Assembly (NCBI RefSeq): GCF_055900595.2
Contig: NZ_CM148325.1
DNA length: 64,000 bases
Reading direction: 5' to 3' (one strand)
Below are positions 33,302-35,161 of this stretch, piece after piece. Position numbers and translations under genes: made by a program. The notes below the pieces were generated by a model. That model made no database searches. It was not told the DNA's origin and saw nothing but the letters and a program-made list of their open reading frames with translations. Every line of letters starts with the position of its first letter. Position 1 is the stretch's first letter.

Positions 33302-35161
33302 ATGATAATAACTTCGCCGTTTAAACCCAATGTGCTGGTGCTTATTTGCAGTGCCGGGCTTTGTGCCGCCTCAGCAGGGCTATATATAAAAAGCCGCACG
33401 CCAGATACCCCCGTCCAACCAGTGCCCGTTGTTGCCACCGTGGCAACAGCCCCACAAATCGGGGAGCAACCGACACCAGTTCCTCCAGCAACGCCTGCAC
33501 CAGAAGTAACGGCAACCCTACCACTTACGCCTGCCAGTACCGCTGAAGTGAAATCGACTTTTACCACTGCGCAAATTGACCAGTGGGTCGCGCCAATTGC
33601 GCTTTATCCTGATGCTTTGCTATCACAAGTATTGATGGCAGCCACTTATCCAACCAATGTGGCACAGGCAGTTCAGTGGTCACGAGATAATCCGACAAAA
33701 CAGGGTGATAATGCTATTCAGGCCGTTTCTGACCAACCCTGGGATGCCAGCGTAAAATCGCTGGTGGCTTTTCCGCAACTGATGGCATTAATGGGCGAAA
33801 ATCCGGAGTGGGTGAAAAATCTTGGTGATGCATTCCTGGCACAACCGCAGGACGTCATGGACTCAGTACAGAAATTACGTCGCCTGGCACAGCAGACCGG
33901 ATCGTTAAAATCAACCGTGGAACAGAAAGTTGTGACCACAACCCGGAAAGCTGCGCCGGTAAAATCTCATGAATCGGAAAACCAGGACACGACGTCTGTC
34001 GCCAGTACAACAACCATTATTACCCAGCCAGATCCCGAACCGACTATTATCACCATTGAGCCAACGAAACCGGACGTAATTTATATTCCAAACTATAACC
34101 CCTCCGTAGTTTACGGAAGCTGGGAAAATACGGCTTATCCACCCGTTTATTTGCCACCACCAGCAGGCGAACCGTTTGTTGATAGCTTCGTGCGCGGCTT
34201 CGGTTACAGCATGGGTGTTGCCACAACGTATGCCTTATTCAGCAATATCGACTGGGATGATGATCATCACGATCATCATCATCATGATGACGACGATCAC
34301 CATAACCACAACGACGACTATCGGGACGGGAAAGCCTGGCAGCATAACGGCGATAATATCAATATCAACGTCAATAATTTCAACCGTATCACGGGCGAGC
34401 ACCTTACTGACAAGAATATGAGGTGGCAGCATAATCCAAATTACCGTGACGGCGTGCCTTACCATGATCAGGATATGGCAAAACGTTTTCATCAAACAAA
34501 CGTCAATGGTGGTATGAGCACCACACAGCTGCCAGCACAGTCTCGCGATATCCAGCGCCAGGAGGCAGCGAGTCAATTTCAACAGCGGACGCACTCTGCA
34601 CCAGTGACCATGCGTGATACACAACGTCAGGCTGCTTCACAGCAATTTCATCAGCGGGAGCAACAGGATGATTTTCGTGATTATGCTCTGCCCCGCCGTA
34701 ACAGCAACACTTCACGTTTTGATGGCGAATACCACAACCGTGAAGACGGGAATGTTCGCCCACCGCAACGCCAGTTAACTCAACAACAGCGGGAGAAAGC
34801 CCGTAAGCGTTATGATTCTGCGACACCTGAGCAGCGCCAGGCGTTTCGTGAGAAAGTTCAGAACCAGCAACGACCGTTGAGTCAGCAGCAAAGGGATAGC
34901 GCCCGCCAGCGTATTCAATCGGCCTCGCCTGAGCAGCGTCAGGCTTTTCGGGAGAAAGTTCAGAATCAGCAACGACCGCTGAGCCAACAGCAAAGGGATA
35001 GCGCTCGCCAGCGAATTCAGTCAGCAACACCTGAACAACGTCAAGTCTTTCGCGAGAATCGCTTGAATGACACCAGCCGCGTCTCCAGACTTAGTAGTGA
35101 GCAACGCTCAGCAGTACGGGAACGTCTCTCTGAGCGCGGAGCAAGGCGACTGGAAAGGTAA
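33302..35161 (+). CDS. yacH: Uncharacterised DUF3300-family protein YacH with Pro/Thr-rich linker, His/Asp tract and Gln/Arg-rich tandem repeats
   Basis: 619-aa ORF; N-terminal hydrophobic segment; low-complexity regions visible directly in the translation. Confidence 0.85.
   Translation: MIITSPFKPNVLVLICSAGLCAASAGLYIKSRTPDTPVQPVPVVATVATAPQIGEQPTPVPPATPAPEVTATLPLTPASTAEVKSTFTTAQIDQWVAPIALYPDALLSQVLMAATYPTNVAQAVQWSRDNPTKQGDNAIQAVSDQPWDASVKSLVAFPQLMALMGENPEWVKNLGDAFLAQPQDVMDSVQKLRRLAQQTGSLKSTVEQKVVTTTRKAAPVKSHESENQDTTSVASTTTIITQPDPEPTIITIEPTKPDVIYIPNYNPSVVYGSWENTAYPPVYLPPPAGEPFVDSFVRGFGYSMGVATTYALFSNIDWDDDHHDHHHHDDDDHHNHNDDYRDGKAWQHNGDNININVNNFNRITGEHLTDKNMRWQHNPNYRDGVPYHDQDMAKRFHQTNVNGGMSTTQLPAQSRDIQRQEAASQFQQRTHSAPVTMRDTQRQAASQQFHQREQQDDFRDYALPRRNSNTSRFDGEYHNREDGNVRPPQRQLTQQQREKARKRYDSATPEQRQAFREKVQNQQRPLSQQQRDSARQRIQSASPEQRQAFREKVQNQQRPLSQQQRDSARQRIQSATPEQRQVFRENRLNDTSRVSRLSSEQRSAVRERLSERGARRLER
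34817..35060 (+). repeat. Tandem 102-bp coding repeat, about 2.4 copies, inside yacH
   Basis: Units start at 34817, 34919 and 35021 and encode S-A-T/S-PEQRQAFREKVQNQQRPLSQQQRDSARQRIQ with only a few substitutions. Confidence 0.8.

Follow-up and report, generated by a model that had tools for sequence, protein, structure and literature searches.

What does an almost uninterrupted run of aspartate and histidine residues mean in a protein of a family with no known function? Such a run is encoded in the DNA considered here, a stretch of 64,000 nucleotides that is referred to below as the window. The initial annotation, made from the sequence, described it as a candidate binding site for divalent metals and at the same time as a simple-sequence tract prone to slippage. 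We therefore ask what the segment is, how it arose in its protein family, how it varies between related genomes, and which of its possible functions is supported by the pattern of variation.

Host gene and its allele

The tract lies within an open reading frame of 619 codons at 33302..35161 (+), located between acnB and lpdA on the strand opposite to both. This is the position of b0117 in Escherichia coli K-12, and the gene order cueO-yacC-speED-yacL-acnB-yacH-lpdA-aceF is the same in the two sequences, as fits the name yacH given in the initial annotation. By its open reading frame, Pfam match and synteny it is a coding sequence at the yacH position for a DUF3300 protein, with an allele of the Escherichia fergusonii type. 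The match to DUF3300 (PF11737; E=3e-78, 262.8 bits against a gathering cut-off of 25) spans profile positions 2–227 of 227 and amino acids 89–348 of the protein (33566..34345, +), so the protein is a full-length member of the family; the confidently modelled helical part of this region is amino acids 89–198. In RefSeq the protein is labelled only "DUF3300 domain-containing protein", and a search of NCBIfam profiles returned no match for it.

The N-terminus contains a hydrophobic segment, amino acids 10–26 (33329..33379, +), which is a helix in the AlphaFold2 model and may be a signal peptide or a signal anchor. A hydrophobic N-terminus is also present in the consensus of the DUF3300 family. 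Judging by this helix, export of YacH to the periplasm is probable; a published prediction assigns the protein as "Extracellular" (PMC9600279). At the other end of the protein, and separate from the tract, a 102-bp tandem repeat of 2.3 copies (34823..35058, +) encodes Gln/Arg-rich helical repeats. These "SPEQRQ" repeats were compared with CpxP/Spy (LTxxQ) and Metal_resist, a match to which would have backed a metal or chaperone role; the matches were not significant by profile or by fold.

A megablast search with the window tract found yacH with at least 99% identity in 8 of 5,426 complete "E. coli" genomes. The acnB gene is at least 99% identical in those same 8 genomes only and about 96% identical in all other E. 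coli. The exact window protein is recorded in 256 contigs, and the named members of its 90% cluster are mostly E. fergusonii. The eight-genome result is that of a divergent allele, not of a rare gene, and the allele survey was therefore redone with the K-12 sequence as a query. The eight RefSeq records named E. coli that carry the window-type yacH may be E. fergusonii-like.

The window protein and the E. coli-type YacH share about 68% local amino-acid identity (74% over aligned positions), and the K-12 tract at the same place reads WDDDDHDHHHHDNDDYHHHDGGHRDGNGW. With the same architecture retained, yacH (central part, 33400-34800) is far more diverged from K-12 than acnB (30350-32947) and lpdA (35233-36657): the pS values for these three genes are 0.72 (saturated), 0.169 and 0.044, respectively. 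In two stretches of yacH the identity in 100-nt windows falls to 27–60%. Set against other genera to see which of the two is the unusual one, the window and E. coli alleles came out at about the same distance. Candidate explanations suggested by these comparisons are that an exported protein evolves rapidly, that the allele is old, or that recombination brought it in from outside.

The His/Asp tract

The tract occupies 34256..34318 (+), in frame with yacH, and its 21 codons encode amino acids 319–339. Codons 1–10 are GAT GAT GAT CAT CAC GAT CAT CAT CAT CAT, and codons 11–21 are GAT GAC GAC GAT CAC CAT AAC CAC AAC GAC GAC. The encoded peptide, DDDHHDHHHHDDDDHHNHNDD, comprises 10 Asp, 9 His and 2 Asn in 21 residues; it is both His-rich and acidic, as are metal-binding loops of envelope proteins. 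A 66-bp run composed of GAY and CAY had been described here. The run is real, but its length is 63 bp and it ends 3 nt earlier, as positions 34319-34321, immediately 3' of its last codon, are TAT (Tyr). Its composition is mostly as described, but two codons are AAC, hence it should be termed a GAY/CAY/AAC run.

Chance origin of the tract is excluded, because the next-longest run of D, H and N in all six frames of the 64-kb window is only 6 residues and in 20,000 shuffles of the YacH residues such a run never exceeded 8. As a simple-sequence repeat the tract is short and imperfect. Its longest perfect trinucleotide repeat is (CAT)4 at 34274..34285 (+), (GAT)3 also being present, and its TRF scores of 32–39 are below the default threshold of 50. 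Three GATC sites (Dam methylation and MutH) fall within the 63 bp, at 34262-34265, 34271-34274 and 34295-34298. They are an automatic result of Asp-His being written as GAT-CAY; the published 8-bp deletion in Salmonella, considered below, likewise begins at GATC.

On the complementary strand the list of open reading frames contains a frame of 129 codons with a TTG start (34235..34624, -), which the initial annotation regarded as spurious and as created by the tract. It is indeed spurious, but the tract contributes to it without creating it, accounting for 63 of its 390 nt, in the 3' tail. Were this frame a real gene, the tract would encode an Ile/Val/Met-rich hydrophobic C-terminus, and one could point to the existence of the 129-codon frame and to its K-12 counterpart, which has the same stop. 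That counterpart, however, encodes 97 amino acids and has its TTG start at a different place, so that neither start nor length is constant. Moreover, no Pfam match was obtained for the antisense frame, whereas the sense frame has the strong DUF3300 match, and the antisense residues swap among I, V and M exactly at the synonymous changes of the sense strand, where the sense protein is conserved. Since the complement of GAY, CAY and AAY codons can never yield a stop codon, the antisense frame is a by-product, and we consider a gene on this strand scarcely credible. A second by-product frame in the +1 register (34176-34421, +; 81 amino acids, TTG start) reads the tract as an Ile/Thr/Met-rich segment.

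The loop in the DUF3300 family

A HMMER search of the whole library yielded 9,536 representatives of 50% clusters at E<=0.001. The family alignment was formed by the window protein and those 111 of the best 150 representatives that cover the loop region (112 sequences). In this alignment the tract opens an expanded loop of 34 residues, amino acids 319–352 (34256..34357, +), which is bounded by the conserved Trp318 (TGG, 34253..34255, +), the last residue of the conserved block directly before the loop, and by an (I/V)N(I/V)N strand. Exactly four residues are found at this site, from Trp to (V/I)N(I/V)N, in 81 of the 112 aligned sequences, and for most of the distant homologues the alignment ends at about amino acid 319, directly before the tract. 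Short loops (at most 6 residues) consist of Gly (32%), His (21%), Asp (14%) and Arg (12%), among others.

Six close relatives carry 24–38 residues at the loop site, of which His and Asp make up 52–68%. Cluster names, from which we read the taxonomic spread, are available for some of them and point to Scandinavium, Rahnella and Citrobacter/Enterobacter. A 21-residue His/Asp-rich insertion is present at the same site in a cluster with a Dryocola protein (P0242), and two more distant representatives have smaller His-rich insertions, of 19 residues (P0155, 53% His+Asp) and 17 residues (P0127, 41% His+Asp). Several other lineages have insertions at this site that are rich in Gly, Tyr and Trp. Taken together, the loop lengths in the family and the composition of the short loops indicate that a loop tolerant of insertions, and enriched in His beforehand, underwent a lineage-specific expansion into the tract.

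The AlphaFold2 model of the window protein, built with the family alignment, has a mean pLDDT of 71.8. It contains a linker without predicted secondary structure (amino acids 30–88, pLDDT about 48–59), a helical domain (amino acids 89–198, pLDDT 95–98), short strands and C-terminal helical repeats. The mean pLDDT of 10-residue blocks is 47–51 at residues 321–350, compared with 85–98 in the flanking blocks; the tract loop is thereby predicted to be disordered and to be carried on a folded domain. No solved structures resembling the model were found.

Downstream of the loop (34340-34500, amino acids 347–400) the family keeps the motif W-x-H-x-P-x-H-R-x-G-V-x-Y-R. The window version of it is WQHNPNYRDGVPYHD, with the second His replaced by Tyr. 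To judge from the alignment, the conserved His of this motif and the His-enriched short loop may together make up a site shared by the whole family. A DUF2950 gene of the same orientation lies directly downstream of the DUF3300 gene in a distant metagenomic homologue (L008 6001-8699). No DUF2950 partner is present beside yacH in the window or in K-12. No metal-related neighbours were seen at that distant DUF3300-DUF2950 locus, and the second contig examined was too short to inform.

Length variation of the tract

We compared the tract in 120 clusters of related proteins. They contain 37 distinct tract sequences, the variants including His runs of 3 to 7 residues, an insertion of DH, tandem duplications of 7–8 residues, and deletions. 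When the window protein was added (121 sequences), the tract fell into 11 length classes, more than any other site of YacH. In 14 pairs the proteins are identical outside the tract and have tracts of different length, and 90 pairs have at most two differences outside the tract. Therefore, indels in the tract outpace substitutions across the other approximately 590 residues. Within the window's own 90% cluster, the segments between the two flanking Trp residues (W-to-W) have lengths of 27, 26 and 23 residues. In most members of the E. fergusonii type this repeat counts three CAT units, one fewer than the (CAT)4 of the window, and E. coli alleles have 3–7 His.

For the E. coli survey, 60 evenly spaced genomes were taken from the 5,417 complete genomes matching the K-12 tract region. 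Five length classes were observed. The K-12 length is found in 49 of the 60 genomes. Six genomes have 6 additional bp, a tandem duplication of CATGAC; three lack 39 bp, the stretch between two CAT repeats having been removed; one lacks 6 bp; and one has gained 24 bp by a perfect tandem duplication of 24 bp. All length variants recovered from E. coli are in frame, that is, multiples of 3. E. coli alleles whose yacH is still annotated as intact have W-to-W segments of between 14 and 35 residues. The +6 allele has uniform flanking identity in its six genomes, which suggests that it is stably inherited and does not switch rapidly. Thus the tract length is variable across yacH alleles, and, in line with the slippage suspected in the initial annotation, the events visible at the DNA level are tandem duplications or repeat-flanked deletions.

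A frameshifting event is known from Salmonella. For S. Typhimurium, an 8-bp deletion, GATCATCA, is reported in GAC GAT CAT CAC at Asp284 of yacH, and the gene is listed as a pseudogene, relative to LT2, in strains 14028s, UK-1, D23580 and SL1344 (PMC10048834, PMC3391293). Judged by the codons and the residue number, the site of this deletion is the homologous tract.

Selection on the tract

The dN/dS ratio of yacH between the window and K-12 is about 0.075 gene-wide. The first 14 residues of the tract match at 12 positions in the two proteins despite 8 synonymous differences, whereas the last 8 residues match at only 2. The shortest E. coli allele still has DDDDHDHHH. The tract replacements listed for close relatives are almost exclusively N, Y, G, R and W; Leu, Pro, Val, Ala, Glu and Gln, each one mutation away, are absent from this list, which is a small count given without statistics. 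Retention of the residues across saturated synonymous sites argues for selection acting on the Asp/His core of the tract, while the remaining part, as far as the two alleles can tell, appears to be free to drift and slip.

Function of the loop and alternative explanations

We place high confidence in the descriptive part of this account, namely that the tract exists, where in the family it came from, that its length is polymorphic through repeat-mediated indels, that it is predicted to be disordered and that Asp and His are conserved in it. A broader explanation that covers these features is, on balance, probable. YacH would be an exported DUF3300 protein carrying a disordered low-complexity loop. 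This loop would have arisen in Enterobacterales by expansion of an ancestral four-residue turn rich in Gly, His and Asp. Slipped-strand mispairing among near-identical GAY and CAY codons would lengthen and shorten the loop in frame, by duplicating or deleting 3 to 39 bp, and selection would maintain the Asp/His-rich core. In the cell envelope, this core would most likely bind divalent transition-metal ions (Zn, Ni, Cu) in a reversible and multivalent manner with low affinity.

Taken by itself, metal binding as a candidate activity of the loop has nearly an even chance in our estimate, because the composition, the predicted disorder, the probable export, the conserved Asp/His core and the analogy with PA4063 and ZnuA (see below) all point in this direction. 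That YacH is exported to the periplasm, that it binds metal and that such binding matters physiologically are points we infer. No relevant paper linking yacH or DUF3300 with metals was found in the literature, and no metal-related neighbour gene or regulator was found. The gene is regulated by CpxR and its expression responds to cationic peptides; a yacH deletion mutant survives better under protamine (PMC9600279). It is also down-regulated in a rob mutant (PMC7537768).

The pattern of variation could also be produced if the tract were a low-complexity insertion without function, accepted by a permissive loop at the surface and made and resized by slippage, with its richness in Asp and His merely following from GAY and CAY seed codons. 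The Gly/Tyr/Trp-rich insertions at the same loop in other lineages agree with this, as do the E. coli alleles with W-to-W segments of anything from 14 to 35 residues in genes annotated as intact, the poorly conserved second half of the tract, and the Salmonella strains with a frameshift in it. Nevertheless, a segment without function would not be expected to keep 12 of its first 14 residues across saturated synonymous divergence, nor to stay rich in Asp and His in homologues from Escherichia, Scandinavium, Rahnella and Citrobacter/Enterobacter; the narrow range of replacements, small as their number is, tells against it too. We consider such neutrality unlikely. Another reading makes the loop a charge or pH switch, or a patch that binds polycations. 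With 10 Asp and 9 His, it would be strongly negative at neutral pH and would move towards positive charge at acid pH, and so might serve enteric bacteria as an acid-responsive element or bind cationic peptides such as protamine. The composition of the tract, the large His/Asp expansions in enterobacterial homologues together with the two smaller ones in other representatives, and the protamine and CpxR data quoted above are consistent with this. However, the proposal is read off the composition itself, and the protamine phenotype belongs to deletion of the whole gene. We regard it as decidedly improbable, and note that it is compatible with metal binding, as both could hold.

The same repeats might be thought to form a contingency locus, at which yacH would frequently be switched on and off or moved from one functional state to another. 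In favour of this, indels of the gene concentrate in the tract, and the Salmonella deletion there does shift the frame. But the 3-nt unit keeps slippage in frame, and the longest perfect run in the window is 4 units, with His runs of up to 7 elsewhere. The uniform flanks of the +6 allele suggest stable inheritance, and the Salmonella frameshift is common to several strains as a pseudogene and is not described as reversible. Of the features of a phase-variable locus, length polymorphism was observed here; a long perfect repeat and switching of frame or expression were not. With such short repeats, and with all E. coli variants in frame, the tract is not an on/off contingency locus, a role that we rate as very improbable; phase variation and a real antisense gene are both effectively excluded. 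The expanded loop with a selected, possibly metal-binding core remains our preferred explanation. A stronger version of it, in which the loop would respond to metals or protons in the periplasm and slippage would adjust its capacity from strain to strain, seems rather unlikely. If it were true, evolution could turn the number of His and Asp ligands up or down like a dial on a Cpx-regulated envelope protein, and the DUF3300 family, whose short ancestral loop is already enriched in His, would gain its first functional handle.

No function is known for YacH and its DUF3300 relatives, widespread as they are (over 9,500 cluster representatives at E<=0.001). Within YacH, the tract alone points to a testable chemistry, namely binding of metals or protons, and it marks a loop that is enriched in His throughout the family even in its short form. 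It is also an indel hotspot that yields many protein variants and has given rise to a pseudogene in Salmonella Typhimurium; differences in tract length should therefore not be over-read in comparative and typing studies.

Comparison with known systems

The histidine-rich loop of ZnuA is, like the YacH tract, acidic, and its length varies between species. Papers cited in PMC3872050 deal with this loop. Histidine-rich loops are also described for the periplasmic protein PA4063 of Pseudomonas aeruginosa; they lack order in the apoprotein and take part in the binding of zinc, for which two sites of micromolar affinity are reported (PMC8561739). YacH resembles these proteins in having a His-rich loop, predicted to be disordered, in a probable envelope protein. 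Unlike them, it is not a solute-binding protein and is without a transporter partner, a reported metal-responsive regulator or a demonstrated primary metal site, and its DUF3300 fold is without a solved relative.

The tails of HypB, SlyD and Hpn are of low complexity, combine His runs with acidic residues and bind Ni and Zn with moderate affinity. These proteins are cytoplasmic and are tied to the maturation of nickel enzymes. The YacH tract is similar in its low complexity and its combination of His runs and acidic residues. The context differs, since YacH has an N-terminal helix of the export type and no association with the maturation of nickel enzymes.

Contingency loci of Haemophilus, Neisseria and Campylobacter consist of long runs of perfect repeats, in many cases with a unit length that is not a multiple of 3, and turn the frame on and off. 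As in those loci, the length of the YacH tract would change by slipped-strand mispairing in a coding repeat. YacH, by contrast, has short and imperfect triplet repeats, whose length changes leave the reading frame intact.

Compared with its own family, the window protein has 34 residues at a loop where most DUF3300 (PF11737) members have 4, and the tract lies inside the region covered by Pfam; the one distant member examined for context has a DUF2950 gene next to it, whereas the window gene does not. Seen against all these systems, the tract is ordinary rather than a new system: it is a low-complexity loop, rich in His, that slippage has shaped.
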